IMG/VR virus record: IMGVR_UViG_3300002835_000148
Length of the DNA: 64,000 nt
Strand: one strand, 5' to 3'
Source of the DNA: a virus
The position numbers and the translations under genes are program-made. Below, piece after piece: positions 286 through 48,809 of this stretch (positions are counted from its first letter, which is position 1; the number at the start of each line of letters is the position of its first letter). Under the pieces are notes generated by a model. The model saw nothing but the letters and a program-made list of their open reading frames with translations, ran no database searches and had not been told where the DNA came from.

Positions 286-326
286 AGCAAAAACACACAA
301 GAAAACAAACGATGAGGAAACAACGA

Positions 327-719
327 ATGACACTAGAAGAGTTTGAAGCGATCTTCAAAGAAAGAGATGAAGCGAAGTCCCCAGATGAGTTGCACGCACA
401 GGTAGTGCGAACCAAACTCCAGAATAACCTGAGCGATCTAGCGAAACTATACAACCCACCAAAGCAAAAAACTCAAGAACAGAACACTCAAGAACAAAAA
501 ACCCACGCTCGGCAGGTAGGCGGCGACCACTACAAAACCAAATCCATTCAGCCGTGGGATGTGATAGATACGCTGCCTCATGCCGAAGCTATCGGATTTT
601 ACAGGGGAAATGCTATAAAATACCTCATGCGAGCAGGAGCTAAGACTGATAATCCAGCGCGACAGGATTACGAGAAGGCACTGCATTACATTGAGAAGTT
701 GCTAGATACCCTACGGTAG
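327..719 (+). CDS. DUF3310-like phage protein
   Basis: GGDHY...GNAIKYLMRAGAK motif recalled from the DUF3310 family. The ORF opens at 312, but GAGGA lies 8 nt before ATG 327. Confidence 0.6.
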   Translation: MTLEEFEAIFKERDEAKSPDELHAQVVRTKLQNNLSDLAKLYNPPKQKTQEQNTQEQKTHARQVGGDHYKTKSIQPWDVIDTLPHAEAIGFYRGNAIKYLMRAGAKTDNPARQDYEKALHYIEKLLDTLR

Positions 720-756
720 CACCCACAAAAGCCTCCCACGAACACAGGAACCCCAC

Positions 757-3234
757 ATGCCCATAGAACGCGCTCCCCAGCAAAGCCCCCTACAGGGTTA
801 CATAGAAGAGAACCTCCGTGCTCAAAGCCCACTGCTGAGTGAGAGCGAAGAAGAGCCTGTAGAGATTATTCTTGGGCCTGAAGACGGTGAGGAGGTATTT
901 TCCATAGAAACTACAGAAATCGAAGCGCCTAGCTTTGATGCTAACCTCGCTGAGTTTATGGATGAGTCAGAGCTTGCAGCCCTGTCTGCGGATTTGCTTG
1001 ATGATTTTAGTAACGACAAGGCAGCGCGTAGAGAGTGGGAAGAGACCTATGTAGACGGGCTGGACTTGCTTGGGTTGAAGCTGGAAGAAAGGACTGAGCC
1101 TTGGAACGGAGCGTGTGGAGTATTCCACCCCATGCTGACAGAAGCGGCTATTCGGTTCCAGAGCGAGATGATCTCAGAGACATTCCCAGCACAAGGGCCA
1201 GTCAAGGCGCGGATCATTGGTAAAACGGATAAAGAGACAGAGCAGGCGGCGGCGCGAGTCGTTGCAGATATGAACTATCAGCTCACTGAGCAGATGCAGG
1301 AGTTTCGGCCAGAGCATGAAAAGATGTTGTGGTCACTGTCTCTCTCGGGCGCTGCGTTCAAGAAGGTGTATTTTGACCCGACACTGAACCGCCCTACGTC
1401 GATGTTTGTGCCAGCGGAGGACATCTACCTGCCCTACGGGTCTAGCAGTGCTAACACTGCTGAGCGCATCACTCACAGCATGCGGAAGACCAAGAACGAG
1501 GTTAAGAAGCTACAGCACAGTGGGTTCTACCGCGACATAGACTTGAACGAGCCGACGAGAGACATAGACCGTATTCAGAAGCGCAAGGACGACGACTCTG
1601 GGTTCAGTGCTATCAACGACGATAGGTATAACTTGCTTGAGATGCAGGTCGAGTTGAATCTGCCGGGGTTTGAAGACGTTGATCCAGAAACAGGTGAAGA
1701 GACAGGTATCGCTCTGCCTTATGTTGTAACCCTCGAAAGGGGTACGGGCGAGGTGCTGGCTGTCAGGAGAAACTATGAAGAGCATGATGATTTTAAGCAG
1801 CCTCGTCAGCATATTGTTCAGTATACGTACATTCCGGGTTTTGGAGCGTATGGATACGGTCTCATTCATCTTATTGGTGGTGCTACCCAGTCAGCTACCT
1901 CGATAATTCGTCAGCTAATAGATGCAGGCACGCTGAGTAACCTGCCGGGTGGGTTCAAGACCACTGGACTACGAGTAAAAGGCGACGACACACCCATAGC
2001 ACCGGGTGAGTTCAGGGATGTGGATATTCCCAGCGGAGCGATGCGTGACAACATCATGCCTCTGCCGTACAAGGAGCCGAGTGCTACGCTGTTCCAGCTA
2101 TTGCAGAACGTAGTGGAGGAGGGCCGCAGGCTAGCAGCCGTGGCTGATGTTAAGCTCAACGAGATGAATGGTGAGGCTCCCGTCGGTACGACGCTGGCGA
2201 TCCTAGAGCGCACTCTGAAGGTTATGTCGGCAGTGCAGGCGCGGGTTCATGCGTCGATGGCTCAGGAGTTCAAGCTGATTGCGGCCCTGATAAGGGACTA
2301 CACCGCCCCTGACTATTCATACCTCCCGGATGACGTAGCCCCTGCTAGTGCTAAAAAGCAGGACTATGAGAAGACTGACATAATCCCAGTATCTGATCCT
2401 AACGCTACGACAATGGCGCAGAGGATCATTCAGTACCAAGCCGCGATACAGCTAGCGCAGATGGCTCCGCAGATTTATAACCTCCCACTGCTACACAGGC
2501 AGATGCTGGACGTTATGGGTATACGTGACGCAGATAAAATCATTGAGGTGGATGATGACCTCAAGCCGACCGATCCTGTTACGGAGAACATGCAGTTAAT
2601 CAAGATGAAACCAGCGAAAGCGTTCATCGAGCAGAACCATGACGCGCACTTGGCTGTGCATAATGCCTTCATACAAGACCCCAAAGTGGCCGCTCAGATG
2701 GGCCAGAATCCTCAAGCGCAGGCTATTATGCAGGCGTTTCAGGCGCATATCGCGGAGCATATCGGGTTCTCGTATAGAAAGCAGATTGAGTTACAGCTAG
2801 GCGTACCTCTACCCCCGCCCGACGAAGATATGCCTCCAGAATTGGAAGCAAGGGTGGCTCCGCTATTGGCACAGGCCGCACAGCAGGCGTTACAGCAGTC
2901 TCAGGCCGAGGCACAGGCGCAACAAGCCCAGCAGCAGGCTCAAGACCCCGTGATGCAGATGCAGATGAAAGAGCTTCAGCTTAAAGAGCAGGAGCTACAG
3001 ATGAAAGCGCAGATTGAGCAGGCCAAAATCCAAGCGGATAAGGAGATTGCCATTATGGACAATCAGACCAAACTCCAGATTCAAGGGGCCAAGGACAAGC
3101 AGGAAGGCTTCAAAGTAGGCTTCGATGCAGTTAAAGAGTACGTCATGAAGGATGGTGAACGCGCACACGGACGTGAGGAAAAGCAGAAAGATCGGGATCA
3201 CTCCGCAGCGCAAGAGCGCGGGAGGTCGGTTTGA
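757..3234 (+). CDS. Portal protein with long Q/A/E/K-rich C-terminal helical extension
   Basis: 825-aa ORF right after the terminase gene. Size, position and core segments (e.g. GAAFKKVYFDP) fit a podovirus portal. The last ~130 aa are Gln/Ala/Glu/Lys-rich and coiled-coil-like. Confidence 0.8.
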   Translation: MPIERAPQQSPLQGYIEENLRAQSPLLSESEEEPVEIILGPEDGEEVFSIETTEIEAPSFDANLAEFMDESELAALSADLLDDFSNDKAARREWEETYVDGLDLLGLKLEERTEPWNGACGVFHPMLTEAAIRFQSEMISETFPAQGPVKARIIGKTDKETEQAAARVVADMNYQLTEQMQEFRPEHEKMLWSLSLSGAAFKKVYFDPTLNRPTSMFVPAEDIYLPYGSSSANTAERITHSMRKTKNEVKKLQHSGFYRDIDLNEPTRDIDRIQKRKDDDSGFSAINDDRYNLLEMQVELNLPGFEDVDPETGEETGIALPYVVTLERGTGEVLAVRRNYEEHDDFKQPRQHIVQYTYIPGFGAYGYGLIHLIGGATQSATSIIRQLIDAGTLSNLPGGFKTTGLRVKGDDTPIAPGEFRDVDIPSGAMRDNIMPLPYKEPSATLFQLLQNVVEEGRRLAAVADVKLNEMNGEAPVGTTLAILERTLKVMSAVQARVHASMAQEFKLIAALIRDYTAPDYSYLPDDVAPASAKKQDYEKTDIIPVSDPNATTMAQRIIQYQAAIQLAQMAPQIYNLPLLHRQMLDVMGIRDADKIIEVDDDLKPTDPVTENMQLIKMKPAKAFIEQNHDAHLAVHNAFIQDPKVAAQMGQNPQAQAIMQAFQAHIAEHIGFSYRKQIELQLGVPLPPPDEDMPPELEARVAPLLAQAAQQALQQSQAEAQAQQAQQQAQDPVMQMQMKELQLKEQELQMKAQIEQAKIQADKEIAIMDNQTKLQIQGAKDKQEGFKVGFDAVKEYVMKDGERAHGREEKQKDRDHSAAQERGRSV

Positions 3235-3661
3235 CTACGCTAAAGGCGGTAAAGTAACACAAGACCCGTATGACTTTTCAGATAGATATAACACACCATT
3301 AACCCCCAAGGAGGAGCGTGCTTTTAAGGAGTGGGCTGGAGAAAAGGTAAAAGACCTGTATGACTATGACCTGAAAGGATTTTGGAAATCTGGTGCAGGC
3401 TTAGATGCTAGAGGGCATGGGTTAGATCAGTACAAAAAGCCTAACCATCCTACTTTTAGCAATCAGAGCTTGTACCACGGGGTTGATGGACAAACGGGCG
3501 GGGCTTGGTCTGAAGCTCCTGATGGGCAGGTTGTGTTTACTCCTTCTAGGCACAATCTTAAAAATATGCCTCTGCCCGTTATGAAACGCTACTTTGATGA
3601 ACGAGAACCGGGCGCGTTGATAAATATAGACCCAGCAACAATAGAGGAAATAAACGAATGA
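3152..3661 (+). CDS. Hypothetical virion-module protein (start uncertain)
   Basis: 169-aa ORF overlapping the portal 3' end by 83 nt, with no alternative start after the portal stop. It contains FDYAKGGKV and the segment YDLKGFW...KKPNHPTFS. Confidence 0.5.
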   Translation: MVNAHTDVRKSRKIGITPQRKSAGGRFDYAKGGKVTQDPYDFSDRYNTPLTPKEERAFKEWAGEKVKDLYDYDLKGFWKSGAGLDARGHGLDQYKKPNHPTFSNQSLYHGVDGQTGGAWSEAPDGQVVFTPSRHNLKNMPLPVMKRYFDEREPGALINIDPATIEEINE

Positions 3662-3843
3662 AAACGCCGGTTGATCTTGTTATAAAAAATCTCGAAGAGG
3701 CTATTTCTTGCCGCAGAGATGCTATTACAAAGGGGCCGATAAGCTCTTTTGAGGAGTATAAATACCTCACCGGGGTCATTGCTGGCCTACAGGCGGCGCT
3801 GGATGCTGTGAAAATAGCGCAGAAACAGTACGAAGAAGATTGA
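3658..3843 (+). CDS. Hypothetical protein (61 aa)
   Basis: ATGA start/stop overlap with the upstream ORF. A hairpin follows its stop. Confidence 0.5.
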   Translation: MKTPVDLVIKNLEEAISCRRDAITKGPISSFEEYKYLTGVIAGLQAALDAVKIAQKQYEED

Positions 3844-40783: not shown

Positions 40784-40812
40784 ATTATACTGTTTTTACT
40801 ATGTTTTTACAA
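40784..40812 (-). promoter_or_regulatory. Sigma70-like promoter TTGTAA-N17-TATAAT
   Basis: Read on the minus strand. The -35 element overlaps the helicase stop codon. Confidence 0.55.
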
Positions 40813-43293
40813 GGCACCTCCCAAAAAGCTCTGATACATTTCCAACAAACTTTTTTGCGCCAGTGTGCGGCTGGCTAGCGCTTTGTACAATTTGGTCTCA
40901 ACAGGACTGCTGCATAGGTGGACTACCAAACAAGGATTCTTCTGCCCCGATCTATGCACCCGTGCATTGGCCTGTAAATATGTCTCCGCCGATGTCGTTG
41001 GGGAGAACCATACTACCGTATTAGCTGCTGTCAGTGTAACCCCATGTGCCGCCGCCTGTGGCTGAATGACTAGCACCTGTGGGTTTTTATCAGTCTGAAA
41101 CTCTTTGAAAATAACCGTGCGCTTTTTAGCCGACACATCACCGTGTATCGCTGCTGTGGTTATGCCATGCTTATTCAGGTAGCGCTCGACCAAATCTATC
41201 GAGTGCCGAAAGGCGCAAAACACTAGCGTTTTATGCGAGACTTGCTGAACAATGTCCAGCAATTCTTCCAGTTTGTTAGAGCAGTCAAACTCAACAACCT
41301 CTCCAGTGTCAGAATACACTGATCCACAATTATGCACAATAAGCGGCCCTTGGTGCCCAGCTACAACAAACCTAGCCCTGGGTCCGCAGTTAAGTAAGTC
41401 GTAAGTTTTTTGCTCTTGTCTGGAGGCACCATCAGGGCTATTTCTACGGGCCAACCCGCCTTTAGGCGTCTTCTCAATGTGATAGGCTTGATCCCATACG
41501 CCTTCGCCGCTTGTGCTATGGGCATTAAACCTTTCGGGGTGTCTATGAGTACATTCGTCCGTTTGTTCAGCCCCTGCTGTTCTGCGGTAGCCCATCGGCA
41601 ATTTTCTGGGGAATATGGGCCATTGTTGTCTATTCGATCCAGTGTGAGCCCCTTCTTGTATACCGGCCCCATATCTAACCAAAACGCCGCGAATGAATAC
41701 CGCCAACTTTCGCATACTGCTATACCCCGTGCCCCGTAATTTTTGTAGTCCTTGTTGGAGGGATTGTGACAACGGAGTATCATGTTTTGATAATTGGAAT
41801 ACGCCTGATGGTAACTCATTTTGTGCGTTTCGTTCCCGTGGTGGCAGCCACAACTCCTTGGGTATTTTCTGTGCTTCGCCCGCAAGTATTGGCTCTCCCT
41901 TTCCGTAATGTTCCCACAATCGCAAAGACAAAGCCATCTGGCTTTTTTTGCTTTCCCAACTGATGTTCCGGCCCTTGCTATCACAGTCAGGTAGCCGAAC
42001 TTTCGCTGCATCAAATCTATAGCCGGATTTGCCATATAGTATATCTCCTGCTGTGCGCCAACCTTGTGTAGTAAGGACATTATGATCTAGTGTCATAGAT
42101 ACCCCGTAGCAGTCCTCTACTTGCTTAACTCCTCGGAATATGACTCCACCATGATCTACCCATTCCTCTCCATCCCAGACTTTATGCTTGGCTGATACGT
42201 CTTGTATAGGTATCCAGCCTATATCCGTGAGTACCGGAGTATTATACACTATGCACGAAATTTGCAATAGCTTCCCCATCTGCACAGCGGCATTTACCGC
42301 TGATATATCCGTCCCCGCCGCCTGAATGAGCTGCTCTTTCCTCAGCTTATCATAGTATTTTTTCTGCTGCGCTGTCATAGGTATTTGCCTATCTGAATAC
42401 AGCATATCCGGTAAGTCTAGGCAGTCTTCTGTCTTGTATCGAATGGCTGGCTGAAGCGCTTCATACACAATATCTTGAGCTTCTGGGCGCGGAACGTATT
42501 TGAACTGCGACGTTTTCAGCATCACTTTGTCTTTCCATGCTCCAGCATATCCCGGCACAGCGCTTGGATTCACTAGCCTAGCCTGACCATACGCATCTTC
42601 TGGTGACTGCGCTGCGGGTGTTCCTGTCAATAGCCAGAGCCATGTGTCTGCCTTTATCAATGAGTTTAGCGTCTTCCATCGCCTTGTCTTTACATTCTTT
42701 AGCGCAGTGCTCTCGTCACACACAATCAGGTCAAAGCCACCCTGCAATATCTCATCGCGCACCACTTCAATCCCGTCATAGTTGATGATGACAAAATCGG
42801 CCTTACCCTTTATAACGGCGATGCGCTGCTCTTTCGTGCCGTGGGCTATACCCACTCGCCTGTGCATAACTGTATTGAATAGGTCTGACCGCCATGCACA
42901 ATCCATGATAGACAGTGGGCATACGATCAACACGCGCTTTATTGCTTTGGTGTTCAGCAGGTAGTCTGCGGCCCACGCTACAGCAGAGGTCTTCCCCGTC
43001 CCCATCGCATTAAGGCAAAACGCTCTCCTGTGCAATGTCAGAAACGATGCAGTGTCCCTCTGATGGTCAAACGGGCTGTATATTCCGGGCCAGTCGTACT
43101 TACCAAGGATAGGTGACAGCACCTTTTTGAAGCCTAGGTTTTTCAGAATCATGGCATTGCCCAGATTCCAATGCACAGCAACATCGTGCACTCCATGCCC
43201 TTCTTTTATAACCTTGGACTTTTGAATCACCTGAGTGATTTTGTCTGGGTTCTTTGTACGCACAACAAGTGCGCTATTTGCTAATACTTCCAT
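40807..43293 (-). CDS. SNF2/DEAD-like helicase interrupted by an intein
   Basis: Motifs LNAMGTGKT, DESTALKN, LTGTP and QANARVHRSGQ are present. The extein junction is ...KLLQIS|C...VHN|CGSVY. Confidence 0.85.
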   Translation of the reverse strand: MEVLANSALVVRTKNPDKITQVIQKSKVIKEGHGVHDVAVHWNLGNAMILKNLGFKKVLSPILGKYDWPGIYSPFDHQRDTASFLTLHRRAFCLNAMGTGKTSAVAWAADYLLNTKAIKRVLIVCPLSIMDCAWRSDLFNTVMHRRVGIAHGTKEQRIAVIKGKADFVIINYDGIEVVRDEILQGGFDLIVCDESTALKNVKTRRWKTLNSLIKADTWLWLLTGTPAAQSPEDAYGQARLVNPSAVPGYAGAWKDKVMLKTSQFKYVPRPEAQDIVYEALQPAIRYKTEDCLDLPDMLYSDRQIPMTAQQKKYYDKLRKEQLIQAAGTDISAVNAAVQMGKLLQISCIVYNTPVLTDIGWIPIQDVSAKHKVWDGEEWVDHGGVIFRGVKQVEDCYGVSMTLDHNVLTTQGWRTAGDILYGKSGYRFDAAKVRLPDCDSKGRNISWESKKSQMALSLRLWEHYGKGEPILAGEAQKIPKELWLPPRERNAQNELPSGVFQLSKHDTPLSQSLQQGLQKLRGTGYSSMRKLAVFIRGVLVRYGAGIQEGAHTGSNRQQWPIFPRKLPMGYRRTAGAEQTDECTHRHPERFNAHSTSGEGVWDQAYHIEKTPKGGLARRNSPDGASRQEQKTYDLLNCGPRARFVVAGHQGPLIVHNCGSVYSDTGEVVEFDCSNKLEELLDIVQQVSHKTLVFCAFRHSIDLVERYLNKHGITTAAIHGDVSAKKRTVIFKEFQTDKNPQVLVIQPQAAAHGVTLTAANTVVWFSPTTSAETYLQANARVHRSGQKNPCLVVHLCSSPVETKLYKALASRTLAQKSLLEMYQSFLGGAL
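41329..42255 (-). mobile_element. Intein (309 codons) in the SNF2 helicase
   Basis: Begins CIVYNTPVL (block A). TLDHNVLT is block B. It ends YDLLNCGPRARFVVAGHQGPLIVHN, followed by a +1 Cys. Confidence 0.85.
41361..42035 (-). CDS. Homing-endonuclease-like protein nested in the helicase intein, in a different frame
   Basis: AGGAGA lies 8 nt before ATG 42035; the ORF track opens at 42080. The protein has a Zn-ribbon CLCDCG...SCGC, the core YKNYGARGIAVCESW...LDRIDNNGPYSPENCRWAT and a C-terminal HTH-like segment. Confidence 0.75.
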   Translation of the reverse strand: MANPAIDLMQRKFGYLTVIARAGTSVGKAKKARWLCLCDCGNITERESQYLRAKHRKYPRSCGCHHGNETHKMSYHQAYSNYQNMILRCHNPSNKDYKNYGARGIAVCESWRYSFAAFWLDMGPVYKKGLTLDRIDNNGPYSPENCRWATAEQQGLNKRTNVLIDTPKGLMPIAQAAKAYGIKPITLRRRLKAGWPVEIALMVPPDKSKKLTTYLTADPGLGLL

Positions 43294-44575: not shown

Positions 44576-47272
44576 TTAAAAATAACTCTCTAACTTCTTC
44601 ATTTTGAATGATAAATTATCTCCGAACCCGCACTCGGCGTCCAGCGGTATGTTGGGCAGCCACTCTGGAGGTCTACGAAGCTCCTCTACAATAAACTTCA
44701 TAGCTTCTAGTGATTGCTCGGTCGGTACAATACCGTAGAGCGCGTCATGGATAGTCAGCCCGACAGGGTACTTCTTGTGTACTCTTACCATAGCCTCGCC
44801 CATCACGCACCTAGCCAATGCCTGAATGATATTCTGAAAGCATTTGGCGGCGTGTATATGCACTGGCCCTTTGCGCGTTTTGTACACCCATTGTAGCCTG
44901 TTCGAGCTATCCATAGAGGGTGTCAGGTCATTATAGGTCATATACAAATTGGAAGGTAGCCTGATGCCCCGCGCTCCGATAACTTTCAGCGATAGCGCTC
45001 CTAAACCAATGTCGTATTCTTCATTTTGTGCAATCGCGTACAGCGCGTTACCTGCATCATGCCAAGCTTTTTTGACCATATAGTAATCATCTCGGTAAAT
45101 TTCTACGACTTTTTTAGCAAATGTTTCTCCAATGTCCCTACCGGATAGCATCTTGATTTGCTCACGTAATTTCACATGGCCTGTGCCATAGATCAAACTT
45201 AACTGACAGTTATGTACAATTATTGGGCCGGAATCAGTCAAGATCGTAAATCTGTTCCTCGGCCCGGCGCAAAGCAAGTCGTAAACGGGCAATCTCCGCC
45301 TCAAGCTCACTGATTTGGCGCTTGTTTCTGGTATTCTCCGCTCTGGAGATAAACCTAATGTTGCCCGGTTCGTAATTACCATTATTGTCGATGCGATCCA
45401 TGTCAAACTCTGGAACATCCCAACCATCAAGTGTTTGCGCGTGCGCGAGAAACTGCGCTTTATCCATGCGCCATAGTGCGTACACCGTGATGCCTCGGCC
45501 CCCATAGTTTTTATAGTTGCCGTCTTTGGTGTTATGGCAGCGGTTAATTGCTGCGGCGATTCGGTTAAGCAACCTACGCCGATGCTGGTCATTAGGCATG
45601 GCTTTGGTGTAAGCCCAGAACCTTTTAGTCCGACCTGCTGTAAGCCCGCATTGATGGCATCTAGTGCTTTTGAAGTCTTTGAAATTATGCTTATCCACAG
45701 TGTATTCAGGGAGGCCGCAGTCGCATTGGACAATAAGCGCGGCAACTCCCCCTCGCGGGCCTTGAATGTAGCCTGTAACGGTAAGTTTGCCGCTCCTATA
45801 CCCAATGCTTGGGAGAGGATGGACGCATCTGAAACCACTGATTGACTTTCCAACCACTGAGTCCCTGACCACACTAGATGATCCGGTGTTAACCAACTCC
45901 CGCAAAGACTCAATGTTTCTTTGTAACCTTTCGACACTAATCCTTGGTGGCATACCCACTCCTCCCCATCCCATACTTTGTCTGACAAAGAAACCGCTTC
46001 AATCGGCTTCCATCCTGAGTAGCATAATACTAGAGTTCCCTCGGCAATACAAGTTTTTCCAACGAAGCGCTGCTCGTCTGTGACATCTGCATATCTTATG
46101 TTAAACGCTGATGCAGCAAAGTCTTTATACAGGTCAAGCCCATCGCCCAGCATCTCTAGCTTATCCATCTGCCCAGCAAAGTACAGGCCCACACGCAGCT
46201 CGATGTTAGACAAGTCAGCACCCACTATGCTATAGCCCAAAGGCGCGACGATAGCCTTCTTTAGCGGAGAAGTGCGAGGCAAATTCTGCAGATTGATTGA
46301 GTCCACTGCCGACCAGCGCCCTGTGATCGCGCCATAGTATTTTAGAGGTACAGGTAGCGAACCACTCTCTTCTGCTATGCGAATGAAGCGCTCTGTGCGG
46401 GTTTCTTCGAGTGTGCTCTTGACGCCTAGCCTAGCAGCAACTACAGCCTGTACACTGAAATTATCATGCTCCAGCAGTGCTTTGAACTCTGCATCACTCT
46501 TGGCAAAAGCGTAGGCAATCTTGCCCGTTCGCGGGCTTACTTTCACCGGAGGTGTAACACCAAAACTTTTAAGCACTTCCGCCAGCTTCGGGTTCGACAT
46601 CAAGTCTTCTTTAGCAATACCGCTCTCTATAAGCAGGATTGTTTTCCTACCACGCACATCCGTTAAGTGCTCGTGTAACAGTGCGGTGTCTAGTTGAAAT
46701 TGTGGCTTTGTGTGCATCTTGATCGTCATGTCGATCAACGCAATTTCCGACTTGATAAATGCTGGGGCTAGTCGCTTGAACAACTCATAGGTTAGCTCTA
46801 CGTCATTCTTGCAGTATTCCCCATACGCCTTTAACTCTAACTCTGCGAAATCTGCACGGCGTTTACCCATAGCAAGGACAACTTCTTCACCCTTTACCCC
46901 TAGCTCGTAGCGTTCAGCTAGCGCTTTGAGCGATCCACCTGCGTCAACACCATGTACGGCGCGGGCCATAGACAGAGTATCGAGTATCAGCTTAGGGTGA
47001 ATCCCGAACCGCCACGCTAGAATAGACGCATCAAACAGCGCATTGTGAGCCAGCATAAACGCATTGGCCCAGTCAAAACAACCAAGCCAGTCCCTAATTT
47101 CTTCATGCGTTCCGCTAAACCATGCTGCCGGTTCATCGTTCTTCTTTACTGCAACGCCGATAGTTTCATATCGTTCGTCATCTACGTAGCTCTGAGTCGT
47201 TACGTCTTTGCGTGATAAGCTGTACTCTTTGCTATAGTAGGTTTCTATATCCACCGTAAACATATTTAGCAT
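44576..47272 (-). CDS. Family A DNA polymerase with 3'-5' exonuclease domain, interrupted by an intein
   Basis: Exo motifs VDIET, HNALFD and YCKNDV. Pol motif A is DLSNIELRV. Motif B, RFVGKT|intein|CQLSLIYG, is split by the intein. Motif C is TIHDAL. Confidence 0.9.
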   Translation of the reverse strand: MLNMFTVDIETYYSKEYSLSRKDVTTQSYVDDERYETIGVAVKKNDEPAAWFSGTHEEIRDWLGCFDWANAFMLAHNALFDASILAWRFGIHPKLILDTLSMARAVHGVDAGGSLKALAERYELGVKGEEVVLAMGKRRADFAELELKAYGEYCKNDVELTYELFKRLAPAFIKSEIALIDMTIKMHTKPQFQLDTALLHEHLTDVRGRKTILLIESGIAKEDLMSNPKLAEVLKSFGVTPPVKVSPRTGKIAYAFAKSDAEFKALLEHDNFSVQAVVAARLGVKSTLEETRTERFIRIAEESGSLPVPLKYYGAITGRWSAVDSINLQNLPRTSPLKKAIVAPLGYSIVGADLSNIELRVGLYFAGQMDKLEMLGDGLDLYKDFAASAFNIRYADVTDEQRFVGKTCIAEGTLVLCYSGWKPIEAVSLSDKVWDGEEWVCHQGLVSKGYKETLSLCGSWLTPDHLVWSGTQWLESQSVVSDASILSQALGIGAANLPLQATFKAREGELPRLLSNATAASLNTLWISIISKTSKALDAINAGLQQVGLKGSGLTPKPCLMTSIGVGCLTESPQQLTAAITPKTATIKTMGAEASRCTHYGAWIKRSFSRTRKHLMVGMFQSLTWIASTIMVITNRATLGLSPERRIPETSAKSVSLRRRLPVYDLLCAGPRNRFTILTDSGPIIVHNCQLSLIYGTGHVKLREQIKMLSGRDIGETFAKKVVEIYRDDYYMVKKAWHDAGNALYAIAQNEEYDIGLGALSLKVIGARGIRLPSNLYMTYNDLTPSMDSSNRLQWVYKTRKGPVHIHAAKCFQNIIQALARCVMGEAMVRVHKKYPVGLTIHDALYGIVPTEQSLEAMKFIVEELRRPPEWLPNIPLDAECGFGDNLSFKMKKLESYF
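45209..46051 (-). mobile_element. Intein (281 codons) in DNA polymerase motif B
   Basis: Begins CIAEGTLVL. Block B is LTPDHLV. It ends VYDLLCAGPRNRFTILTDSGPIIVHN, followed by a +1 Cys. Confidence 0.85.
45234..45953 (-). CDS. Homing-endonuclease-like protein nested in the polymerase intein, in a different frame
   Basis: GGAGGAG lies 5 nt before ATG 45953; the ORF track opens at 45974. The protein has QCDCG...CHQCG and the core YKNYGGRGITV...MDRIDNNGNYEPGN. Confidence 0.75.
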   Translation of the reverse strand: MPPRISVERLQRNIESLRELVNTGSSSVVRDSVVGKSISGFRCVHPLPSIGYRSGKLTVTGYIQGPRGGVAALIVQCDCGLPEYTVDKHNFKDFKSTRCHQCGLTAGRTKRFWAYTKAMPNDQHRRRLLNRIAAAINRCHNTKDGNYKNYGGRGITVYALWRMDKAQFLAHAQTLDGWDVPEFDMDRIDNNGNYEPGNIRFISRAENTRNKRQISELEAEIARLRLALRRAEEQIYDLD

Positions 47273-47760
47273 ATGCCTTTCTCCTGCATAAACGCCCTAA
47301 CTATTGCTTCCTTTTCTGGGCTTAATCTGGCGCAATTAAAGCCTTCTTTGTCTTTGTGCCTTACTCGCCAAATGTAATGATGCGCGGTCATTGTCTTCAC
47401 ACCCATGAGGACGCCTAATTCCCATGCCATAGTTTTAGCATAGTTGCGATTTCGCGCCTGTGTTTGTCGTGTAGCCCAACAGCAATTATCAGGGCTGTAC
47501 CCTTTGTTTACATCAACTCTTTCTAGTGTGTGCTTGCTCGTAGGGCGTCGCCCCATATCCGATAAGAAATTTTCGTAGAGCAACCATTCAGCTATGACAG
47601 AGATTCCCCGCCCCCCGTAGTGCTTATAATCTACGGCTCTAGTGTTGAAACACCTATTTTTCATCATTTGCCATGAGCGATATTCTGGAGTAGCCACGCG
47701 CCGCCCATTTACGTAGCGCACTTCCCCGCACGCTTTTACAGCCATTACTTTATCAGGCAT
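47266..47760 (-). CDS. Free-standing homing-endonuclease-like protein, paralogue of the two nested ones
   Basis: YKHYGGRGISVIAEW...FLSDMG...LERVDVNKGYSPDNCCWAT shares its core with the ORFs at 41361 and 45234. It overlaps the polymerase start by 7 nt. Confidence 0.7.
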   Translation of the reverse strand: MPDKVMAVKACGEVRYVNGRRVATPEYRSWQMMKNRCFNTRAVDYKHYGGRGISVIAEWLLYENFLSDMGRRPTSKHTLERVDVNKGYSPDNCCWATRQTQARNRNYAKTMAWELGVLMGVKTMTAHHYIWRVRHKDKEGFNCARLSPEKEAIVRAFMQEKGIC

Positions 47761-48081: not shown

Positions 48082-48312
48082 TTAACCATCACCGCTACCC
48101 TCGCCATCACCGTAGCCAGCACCACTGCCACTACCGTGGCTGAAACTACTACCTATGTCAGTGCCAAAGCCCTCTACCGCTTCAAAGTACCATTCAGGGC
48201 AATCGTTTACACCATCGCCAGCACCAGCGCCATTACCGATACCCCACCCGTGACCACGCCCTGAGTAGTGGCCTGAGTTATCTCCTTCGTTAGTGAGTTT
48301 ATAGGGTGGCAT
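48082..48312 (-). CDS. Gly-rich small protein G5 (76 aa)
   Basis: MPPYKLTNEGDNSGHYSGRGHGWGIGNG... Its ATG is embedded in the last codons of G4 and preceded by GGGAGGTGGGAAG. Confidence 0.55.
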   Translation of the reverse strand: MPPYKLTNEGDNSGHYSGRGHGWGIGNGAGAGDGVNDCPEWYFEAVEGFGTDIGSSFSHGSGSGAGYGDGEGSGDG

Positions 48313-48550
48313 CTTCCCACCTCCCGCTGTAACCGCCCTCACCATCGCCATAACCCGCACCGCCCCCCTCCCCCTCGCCACTGCCCTCGCCAGCGCAGCC
48401 TCCAATACCCCCATCCGCGCCGTCCCCACCGCCAGTGCTATCACCAGCGCCAGCATCATATCCGTAAGTAGATAGATCGCCCCAGCCCCTACCCTGCCCT
48501 GTGCCGAGGCATAAGTTATCTCCATTGTTAGTGAATCTATAGGTCAACAT
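48299..48550 (-). CDS. Gly-rich small protein G4 (83 aa)
   Basis: MLTYRFTNNGDNL...GYSGRWEDATL, with the same junction architecture as G5. Confidence 0.55.
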   Translation of the reverse strand: MLTYRFTNNGDNLCLGTGQGRGWGDLSTYGYDAGAGDSTGGGDGADGGIGGCAGEGSGEGEGGGAGYGDGEGGYSGRWEDATL

Positions 48551-48809
48551 CTTCCCACCTCCCGTTGTAGCCACCCTCACCTGCGCCTCCGCCGGAGCCA
48601 TCTCCATCACCATAGCCATCGGCATAGCTGTCTTCATTGACCTCACAATCACCATTCCCAAAACCGTCGCCAGAGCCACTATACCTGCCGTGACCTATTC
48701 TAACGTGGCTGAGAGTAGCAGCATTACCGGAGCCGTAACCCCATCCCCAACAGCGACCTGAGTCGTGGCCTGAGCTATCTCCTCCGTTAGTAAGTTTATA
48801 GGTCAACAT
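48537..48809 (-). CDS. Gly-rich small protein G3 (90 aa)
   Basis: MLTYKLTNGGDSSGH...GGYNGRWEDVDL. The start lies 14 nt inside G2. Confidence 0.55.
   Translation of the reverse strand: MLTYKLTNGGDSSGHDSGRCWGWGYGSGNAATLSHVRIGHGRYSGSGDGFGNGDCEVNEDSYADGYGDGDGSGGGAGEGGYNGRWEDVDL

Follow-up and report, generated by a model that had tools for sequence, protein, structure and literature searches.

We describe here a viral DNA polymerase gene that is interrupted in a catalytic motif by an intein, the centre of which also encodes a second, conserved protein in a shifted reading frame. The gene, of polymerase family A, lies in a stretch of 64,000 nucleotides (nt) from IMG/VR virus record IMGVR_UViG_3300002835_000148, hereafter the window; all features of the polymerase locus are on the minus strand, and positions are those of the whole window. 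The polymerase frame is open throughout the insert, Hint (splicing) features are present at both of its ends, selection passes from one frame to the other along its length, the insert is present or absent in otherwise near-identical genomes, and the same design is conserved in relatives. As an explanation of the locus as a whole, we favour a dual-frame intein with a separately translated nested gene for a putative homing endonuclease, and we place the probability of this reading at about 80%.

The polymerase gene (44576-47272) is a single open reading frame (ORF) for an 898-codon precursor, the product of which matches the Pfam families DNA_pol_A (1.4e-18) and DNA_pol_A_exo1, the 3'-5' exonuclease (5.5e-09). 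A megablast search of GenBank phages with this gene returned no match, and the phage in the window therefore appears to be without a close cultured relative. Between the N-extein (46052-47272) and the C-extein (44576-45208, including the stop codon), 281 codons without a single stop (45209-46051; precursor residues 408-688) separate Thr407 from Cys689 within motif B, such that the translation reads RFVGKT/CIAEGTLVL...LTPDHLV...GPIIVHN/CQLSLIYG. An intein at exactly this position had been proposed in the initial annotation of the DNA, and it is confirmed by the conserved intein blocks, by the modelled Hint fold and by alleles from which the insert is precisely missing. Three polymerase alleles of 617 residues (P0122, P0124 and P0129), 97-99% identical to the polymerase of the window, read RFVGKT/AQLSLIYG and lack just the 281 residues, and the DNA alignment agrees. 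As the empty alleles have Ala after KT where the occupied ones have Cys, the +1 Cys was evidently brought in by the element itself. Furthermore, an independent ENA sample (P0121/L017) contains an 898-residue polymerase 99% identical to that of the window, with an intein that shows no differences over 843 nt. As a separate observation, some polymerase homologues exceed the expected length by about 300 residues (P0123, 1198 residues; P0189, 1208; P0234, 1170; P0136/P0137, 917), and P0136 reaches 917 residues although the motif B intein is absent from it. This suggests further insertions at other sites, possibly other inteins; Pfam gives no identity to the additional ~300 residues of the long homologues (P0123, P0135, P0136, P0189 and others).

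The insert is a class-1 intein. Its N-terminal splicing segment (intein residues 1-93; 45773-46051) begins with the block A Cys1 and contains the block B motif LTPDH, and its C-terminal segment (residues 250-281; 45209-45304; VYDLLCAGPRNRFTILTDSGPIIVHN) ends in IVHN immediately before the +1 Cys. In an alignment of 40 sequences, C1, T55 and H58 (the last two in block B TPDH) are invariant, as are Y257, D258, G263 and N281 of the C-terminal segment. We extracted 41 related inteins, setting their boundaries by alignment to an intein-less allele: every one has the Cys1 nucleophile and occupies the identical motif B site, with a +1 Cys in 39 of them and a +1 Ser in the other two. AlphaFold2 models both splicing segments with a predicted local distance difference test score (pLDDT) of ~94, and Foldseek against PDB gave 44 matches, of which 40 belong to inteins or to other proteins with a Hint domain (Ssp DnaB, Mtu RecA, Npu DnaE and gp41-1 among them); those of the N-terminal segment are to mini-inteins. 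The only profile match of the intein is to PHROG 93 (9e-20). Since the polymerase is essential and the insert breaks motif B, the intein would be expected to be active in protein splicing. Between the two segments lies a fast-evolving linker (residues 96-247; 45311-45766) that is predicted to be disordered, with a pLDDT of ~29 and no secondary structure, and neither Pfam, NCBIfam nor the AlphaFold2 model of residues 96-247 reveals an in-frame endonuclease domain in the polymerase frame. Thus, the centre of the polymerase frame is as featureless as had been supposed, and it lacks an endonuclease of its own by profile; the nested ORF, however, is not confined to this centre, as it overlaps the N-terminal splicing domain by ~44 codons and the C-terminal one by ~23.

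Across the insert, the polymerase frame is open, the +2 (= -1) frame contains the nested ORF and the third frame is rich in stops. The nested ORF (45234-45974) encodes 246 residues from an ATG at 45974, or 239 residues from an ATG at 45953; the shorter version had been picked out in the initial annotation (45234-45953), and every element described for it is present, namely the GGAGGAG ribosome-binding site (45959-45965), the 5-nt spacer and the ATG (45951-45953; the whole signal at 45951-45965), and the protein motifs QCDCG...CHQCG, YKNYGGRGITV and MDRIDNNGNYEPGN. The conserved intein codons that specify WDGEEWVC, inside the N-terminal splicing domain, supply all of these start signals. In the related inteins, the nested ATG arises from the conserved splicing motif [LV]-W-D-G-x-x-W-V-[C] by way of the codons GTA TGG, GAA TGG or GTA TGC, and it is preceded by the G/A-rich codons for W-D-G-E, which in the window supply the GGAGGAG. 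Of the 41 inteins, 40 have such an in-frame ATG, located at intein nt 78, 93 or 99, and in most inteins a stop in the nested frame stands just 5' of it. At the other end, the nested stop codon falls 1-61 nt 5' of the end of the intein, and in several relatives it is a TAA within the terminal His-Asn codons CAT AAC (compare 45209-45214 in the window). From the ATG to nt 209, the nested frame is free of stops in 39 of 40 inteins, against 9.6 expected under free choice of polymerase codons; hence the overlap with the N-terminal splicing domain appears to be maintained, though constraint on the polymerase frame dominates there. A scan for promoter and terminator consensus sequences within the polymerase gene found none, and gave no sign of a dedicated internal promoter. 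Internal initiation on the polymerase mRNA would be the simplest reading of these signals.

The arrangement is widely conserved. GenBank phages, IMG/VR and contigs from metagenomes supplied 46 loci with nested proteins 37-100% identical to that of the window, and in all 46 the nested ORF lies at the same offset inside an open polymerase frame, which extends for up to ~1,190 codons and is shorter at contig ends; in one of them, L016, only a truncated nested ORF is present. The more distant homologues, at 38% identity or less, are free-standing genes. By tblastn, both frames are kept at the same place in the Salmonella Jerseyviruses, in Vibrio phage 97.13 and in EBPR siphovirus 2, and when these and Pseudomonas phage MR14 were examined in all six frames, the polymerase frame was open, the homologous ORF lay in the +2 frame and the +1 frame was closed. 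Persistence of the nested ORF in relatives that carry this intein, which the initial annotation had left to be established, therefore extends down to 37% identity.

The pattern of substitution shows which frame is under selection in each part of the intein. For this analysis, we used 13 relatives with inteins of exactly 843 nt, which align without gaps, and calculated the mean pairwise difference at each codon position. At polymerase codon positions 1, 2 and 3, the differences are 0.29, 0.18 and 0.50 over intein nt 1-75, and 0.21, 0.11 and 0.62 over nt 819-843; in the core (nt 331-735) they are 0.25, 0.60 and 0.31. The polymerase position 2, where variation peaks in the core, is position 3 of the nested codons. 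Wobble variation changes to the nested frame near intein nt 211 and returns to the polymerase frame near nt 750, and polymerase-frame selection dominates nt 1-210. Pairwise amino acid identities follow the same course: in the N-terminal part, the polymerase frame is the better conserved (0.70, versus 0.50 in the nested frame), in the centre (intein residues 71-250) the nested frame is (0.64, versus 0.33 in the polymerase frame), and in the C-terminal part the polymerase frame is so again (0.63 versus 0.42). Furthermore, synonymous recoding of the nested ORF put a mean of 12.4 stops into the polymerase frame, and not one of 20,000 such recodings was stop-free; the reverse recoding, of the polymerase frame, introduced 9.5 stops into the nested frame on average and never zero. 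Each frame thus limits the choice of codons in the other. On this comparative evidence, the nested ORF is to be regarded as a functional gene under purifying selection, and the centre of the polymerase frame as kept only stop-free.

The nested protein has a large family behind it, with more than 100 full-length homologues (230-275 residues, 43-81% identity) in the protein collection, many of them called on contigs of ~1 kb. Its AlphaFold2 model has a mean pLDDT of 85. A zinc-ribbon-like segment (45648-45725) contains four cysteines, C84, C86, C106 and C109, which are invariant in 26 sequences, together with modelled beta strands at residues 64-71, 77-84 and 91-93 and a weak match to CapR. The core domain (residues 129-219; 45318-45590; pLDDT 90-96) has the pattern HRxRLLNR...YxNYGGRGI...DRID..GNYEPGNIRF.SR.EN..NKR, and in the 26 sequences its residues H131, R132, Y157, G158, R160, G161, D193, R194, N205, N214 and N217 are invariant, as is the motif YG.RGI at residues 157-162. 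It terminates in a modelled beta-beta-alpha motif (strands 190-194 and 206-210, then a helix at 211-217; pLDDT >90), where DRID..GNYEPGNIRF.SR.EN looks, by its motif spacing, like an HNH_3 motif. The C-terminal helix (residues 221-245; 45240-45314) is coiled-coil-like in the model, with weak matches to GCN4/bZIP proteins, and overlaps block F of the intein in the other frame. The PHROG families matched, 374 (4.8e-32), 3377 and 2081, are all named 'HNH endonuclease' (range 5e-32 to 8e-21); PHROG 1035 is matched weakly (4.8e-4). The best structural neighbour in BFVD is an 'uncharacterized protein' of Salmonella phage LPSE1 (247 residues, 41% identity), the size and identity of which would fit the same nested ORF. 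Next in the BFVD Foldseek search, at ~1e-11, come phage proteins named 'HNH endonuclease' and 'AP2/ERF', and other neighbours are named 'DNA-binding domain'. An endonuclease VII-like identity was considered and rejected, as none of the 26 members has a PF02945 match and hhalign gave a probability of 1.6% against the Endonuclease_7 protein of L006. On the basis of the PHROG names and of the pattern of mobility described below, 'homing endonuclease' is the best-supported label for the nested protein, albeit unproven.

The polymerase is not the only gene in the window with this design. The SNF2 helicase gene (40807-43293, minus strand) contains an intein of 309 codons (41329-42255) with splicing segments homologous to those of the polymerase intein, and within it a nested ORF of 239 codons in the +1 frame (41361-42080). 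It had been supposed that both inteins bear the same overprinted endonuclease gene; the family and the design are indeed shared, but the two nested proteins are only 35% identical (7e-17) and the helicase copy is offset by +1. In IMG/VR, all 11 relatives of at least 51% identity are likewise nested in a helicase frame, with free-standing genes at greater distance; L019 has a helicase allele of 519 residues from which the intein is absent. The idea of a reproducible way in which a free-standing endonuclease and a mini-intein combine is supported, and corresponds to a model already published (Dassa et al., 2009, PMC2677866; Gosselin et al., 2025, bioRxiv 10.1101/2025.01.02.630785). In phage Ent1, on the other hand, the annotation gives the helicase intein a LAGLIDADG domain in frame. 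A related intein also occurs in a third host protein, of 934 residues (L074, IMGVR_UViG_3300020049_007373; host ORF 288-3089), which is neither polymerase nor helicase; this intein is 32% identical to the helicase intein and contains a homologue of the nested endonuclease at offset +1. The different offsets, +2 in the polymerase and +1 in the helicase, argue against frameshifting and for independent integration or a history of indels. It is conceivable, although we would bet against it, that intein and nested gene form an obligately dual-coding mobile unit, with its start signals in WDGxxWV, which has moved among three or more host genes (the polymerase, the SNF2 helicase and that of L074) at two offsets, and that its endonuclease belongs to a large uncharacterised 'YGGRGI...DRxD' family without the HNH catalytic His. 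Were this so, the members of that family would be homing endonucleases of a new catalytic type, or else drivers of mobility that are not conventional HNH enzymes.

Several features of the locus resemble those of mobile elements. The intein is present in some and absent from others of a set of near-identical genomes, and L019 is without both the polymerase and the helicase intein. Around the insertion site, the empty sequence GGT AAG ACG/GCG CAG TTG compares with GGA AAA ACT/TGT CAG TTA in the occupied one, a total of seven substitutions within -7 to +9; the empty site in L018 is GTCACAGACGAGCAGCGCTTCGTTGGTAAGACGGCGCAGTTGAGTTTGATCTATGGC, and the recoded flanks of the occupied site are GGAAAAACT and TGTCAGTTA. 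The locus with the truncated nested ORF, L016 (IMGVR_UViG_3300032435_000381; host frame 772-3201), has a mini-intein of ~147 residues at the same motif B site, from which the endonuclease core has been deleted; what is left comprises the polymerase frame, the two halves of the Hint domain and nested codons 1 to ~74, and this derivative is the degenerate stage expected of a homing cycle. Finally, a free-standing paralogue of 164 residues (47266-47760, minus strand; PHROG 374, 5.5e-36), 33% identical to the nested protein, lies between a gene for 104 residues and the polymerase gene. A block of ~499 nt here (47252-47750) is absent from the near-identical L017 and L018, and the adjoining ~50 nt at the start of the polymerase gene show 84.6% identity, compared with 97-99% elsewhere. 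From this alignment, the paralogue has the appearance of a homing endonuclease gene that was inserted separately and is accompanied by a co-conversion tract.

A number of observations weigh against the reading that we favour, and they concern both the intein and the nested protein. The Foldseek matches of the intein to Hint domains have a probability of ~1.0 and E-values of 5e-3 or weaker, which are modest because the alignment covers only the N-terminal half, and the intein has no Pfam or NCBIfam match at E up to 0.1 and no sequence match in PDB. That these curated profiles and sequences miss it points to a divergent intein family, and we have not counted it against the fold. The 46 loci are phylogenetically related, so that their counts overstate the independence of the evidence. 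For the nested protein, no Pfam HNH match was obtained at E up to 1 with the window sequence, nor was HNH among the 25 most-matched families of the 26 members; the NCBIfam HNH models did not match it; Foldseek of its model against PDB gave no significant nuclease; and profile and sequence searches against PDB returned only zinc-ribbon and GCN4-like noise. Moreover, Arg194 is invariant at the position of the HNH_3 catalytic His, as judged by a comparison of motif spacing and not a computed alignment, and DRID is also found, with a crude regular expression, in the five free-standing homologues in which the motif is readable. The replacement of the catalytic His by Arg puts the catalytic mechanism of the nested protein in doubt. 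These same nuclease searches and Arg194, along with the BFVD neighbours named 'DNA-binding domain' and 'AP2/ERF', would suit a protein that is functional and selected yet is not a nuclease mobilizing the intein, perhaps a DNA-binding or regulatory protein or a targeting subunit. We consider this unlikely, though it is the alternative to be taken most seriously: the matched PHROG families 374, 3377 and 2081 all carry an HNH endonuclease label, both nested and free-standing copies show insertion and absence in near-identical genomes in the manner of homing genes, and the invariant H131, D193, N205 and N214 could provide an alternative active site.

Other explanations differ in how the second frame came about or is expressed. 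The endonuclease could be made by programmed ribosomal frameshifting, as a fusion with the N-extein and the N-terminal Hint segment, given that the nested frame is shifted by -1 relative to the polymerase and is already open inside the N-terminal splicing domain; the same question of how a hidden endonuclease is translated is raised in the paper on the ShiLan element (Arsenault et al., 2025, PMC11855218). However, no slippery heptamer of the form X XXY YYZ was found in the polymerase frame over intein nt 1-260, the inteins have a conserved in-frame ATG with a Shine-Dalgarno-like tract (40 of 41) and, in most cases, a nested-frame stop just upstream of it, and the helicase offset of +1 would require a shift in the opposite direction, all of which makes frameshifting very improbable. 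An assembly or sequencing artefact, or a decaying pseudogene of a once in-frame endonuclease, has nothing specific in its favour beyond the fact that two compensating indel errors would produce an out-of-frame domain, and its likelihood is negligible. The initial annotation had already argued against an artefact, and rightly so, because the polymerase frame is open in the independent sample with its identical intein and in all 46 loci, the same frames recur in the genomes of 163 isolated phages (see below), and the 13 gapless 843-nt inteins have a clean three-base periodicity in the nested frame, with a nested identity of 0.64; together with the recoding data, these results refute both the artefact and the pseudogene. 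A group I intron with an HNH endonuclease gene is suggested by RefSeq record NC_013600, in which gp39, inside the polymerase coding sequence, is labelled 'HNH endonuclease; type I self-splicing intron'. The probability of this is vanishingly small, as the insert has no Rfam match at E up to 1, group I models included, the polymerase frame is open through it in every locus, and its ends have intein blocks, the Hint fold and codon periodicity in the polymerase frame. A fractured gene with a split intein was also considered, and is ruled out by the single 898-codon ORF of the window and by a likewise unsplit host frame in the 46 loci.

For the dual-frame intein with a separately translated endonuclease, we propose the following cycle, in which nuclease activity, target site and homing are all predicted. 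Ribosomes in the polymerase frame would read through Hint residues 1-93, the disordered spacer of ~150 residues and Hint residues 250-281; the two Hint segments would then fold together, excise the intein and join RFVGKT to CQLSLIYG, so that motif B is restored. A second set of ribosomes would start at the internal ribosome-binding site and ATG, in the WDGEEWV codons, and translate the +2 frame into a free protein of ~240 residues, predicted to consist of an N-terminal helix, the four-Cys zinc ribbon, the HNH_3-like core and the C-terminal coiled coil. During co-infection, this protein would most likely recognise and cut intein-less polymerase alleles at or near the junction between CGCTTCGTTGGTAAGACG and GCGCAGTTGAGT, and recombinational repair from the intein-containing genome would then transfer the intein together with its nested gene and the codon for the +1 Cys.

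Endonucleases encoded out of frame within inteins are rare, but they have been documented. The case of dnaX was described by Gorbalenya (1998) and Gogarten (2002), as cited in later papers; the endonuclease of Synechocystis dnaX is antisense according to Gosselin et al. (10.1101/2025.01.02.630785) and a '+2ORF' according to Phillips et al. (bioRxiv 10.64898/2026.09.14.751524). In actinophage inteins, Gosselin, Arsenault and Gogarten report antisense LAGLIDADG and VSR-like endonucleases as well as a same-strand 'frame 3' endonuclease that is endonuclease VII-like (bioRxiv 10.1101/2025.01.02.630785). The 'frame 3' inteins are similar to ours in strand, in the +2 offset, in a structureless in-frame centre, in the kinship of the endonuclease with free-standing phage genes and in an origin proposed to be by invasion. 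They differ in the endonuclease, which belongs to another family here (no Endonuclease_7 match in Pfam), and in their hosts: the host types that they list for non-canonical inteins are DNA polymerase (Pol III alpha being the only polymerase named in the text consulted), minor capsid protein, terminase and thymidylate synthase, whereas ours is motif B of a family A polymerase; and theirs are actinophages, whereas ours are siphoviruses of Gram-negative bacteria and metagenomic phages. Relative to those inteins, a further distinction here is that the start codon, the ribosome-binding site and ~44 nested codons lie inside the N-terminal splicing domain. The cyanobacterial DnaX intein (Phillips et al., 10.64898/2026.09.14.751524) likewise has an overlapping endonuclease ORF, purifying selection on the endonuclease frame with a relaxed intein frame, and coexisting mini-inteins and intein-free alleles; it differs in having a LAGLIDADG endonuclease and a cellular host gene, in place of the DRxD/HNH-like protein and phage gene described here.

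Three other systems are also comparable. In ShiLan, an element in a mycobacteriophage methylase gene (Arsenault et al., 2025, PMC11855218), the host frame is open, an HNH endonuclease occupies another frame, the distribution among close relatives is disjunct, and the endonuclease stop lies in the last bases of the element (TAAC), as does the TAA of CAT AAC in several of our relatives; this shared ending may reflect coincidence or a common constraint. In ShiLan, however, no splicing domain can be recognised, and the element is believed to persist as a tolerated loop, whereas both Hint halves are intact here. The 'fractured genes' of Dassa et al. (2009, PMC2677866) also have an endonuclease gene of its own between splicing halves and share the evolutionary model, but there the host is split into two ORFs and splicing is in trans; the host frame here is continuous, and splicing would consequently be in cis. 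Canonical bifunctional inteins have a Hint domain interrupted at the same structural position and likewise sit in a catalytic motif of a replication protein, but their endonuclease is an in-frame LAGLIDADG or HNH domain, whereas here it is a separate polypeptide and the in-frame part a disordered spacer.

Most closely related is the polymerase intein of the Jerseyvirus and Dhillonvirus phages (vB_SenS-Ent1, SETP3 and Sodalis phage SO-1), which belongs to the same intein family, has the same motif B site and contains the nested ORF; compared with the copy in the window, its identity is 31% in the polymerase frame and 47-50% in the nested frame. An intein of the Ent1 type, with at least 82% nucleotide identity to that of Ent1, is carried by 163 phage records. 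The Ent1 record annotates it solely as an 'intein encoding splicing domains', and among 60 sampled of the 163 records the nested gene is annotated only in that of SO-1 (NC_013600; L126), where gp39 (1989-2747) lies inside a continuous polymerase coding sequence (505-3693). The 'type I self-splicing intron' label of gp39 is probably a misreading of an overprinted intein. We found no description in the literature of overprinting in the Jerseyvirus and Dhillonvirus phages. What sets the present element apart from the documented cases is the family of the endonuclease, the site in motif B of a family A polymerase, the placement of the start signals in a splicing motif and the broad spread among phages of Gram-negative bacteria. 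Apart from these elements, two adjacent ORFs of 147 and 126 residues (48082-48679, minus strand), placed immediately before the replication module in the sense of the gene strand, encode proteins very rich in Gly, Asp and Ala with repeats of the GxGxGDG type.

In summary, this work describes a deeply sampled natural case of long-term overprinting, in which one frame is merely kept stop-free and the other encodes a folded protein, and in which, at either edge of the overlap, the sequence has to satisfy two functional proteins at once. It supports the view of intein evolution in which splicing comes first and the endonuclease invades later, and several stages of a homing cycle are present, as an empty site, a full element and a mini-intein with its endonuclease deleted, with free-standing paralogues in addition. 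It also draws attention to a large family annotated as HNH that is without the canonical catalytic His. Finally, the same element is present in more than 160 sequenced, culturable phages of Salmonella, E. coli and Shigella, where it has been annotated as an intein with splicing function only or as a group I intron; splicing, initiation, cleavage and homing can therefore be tested directly in these phages, and their annotations can be corrected.

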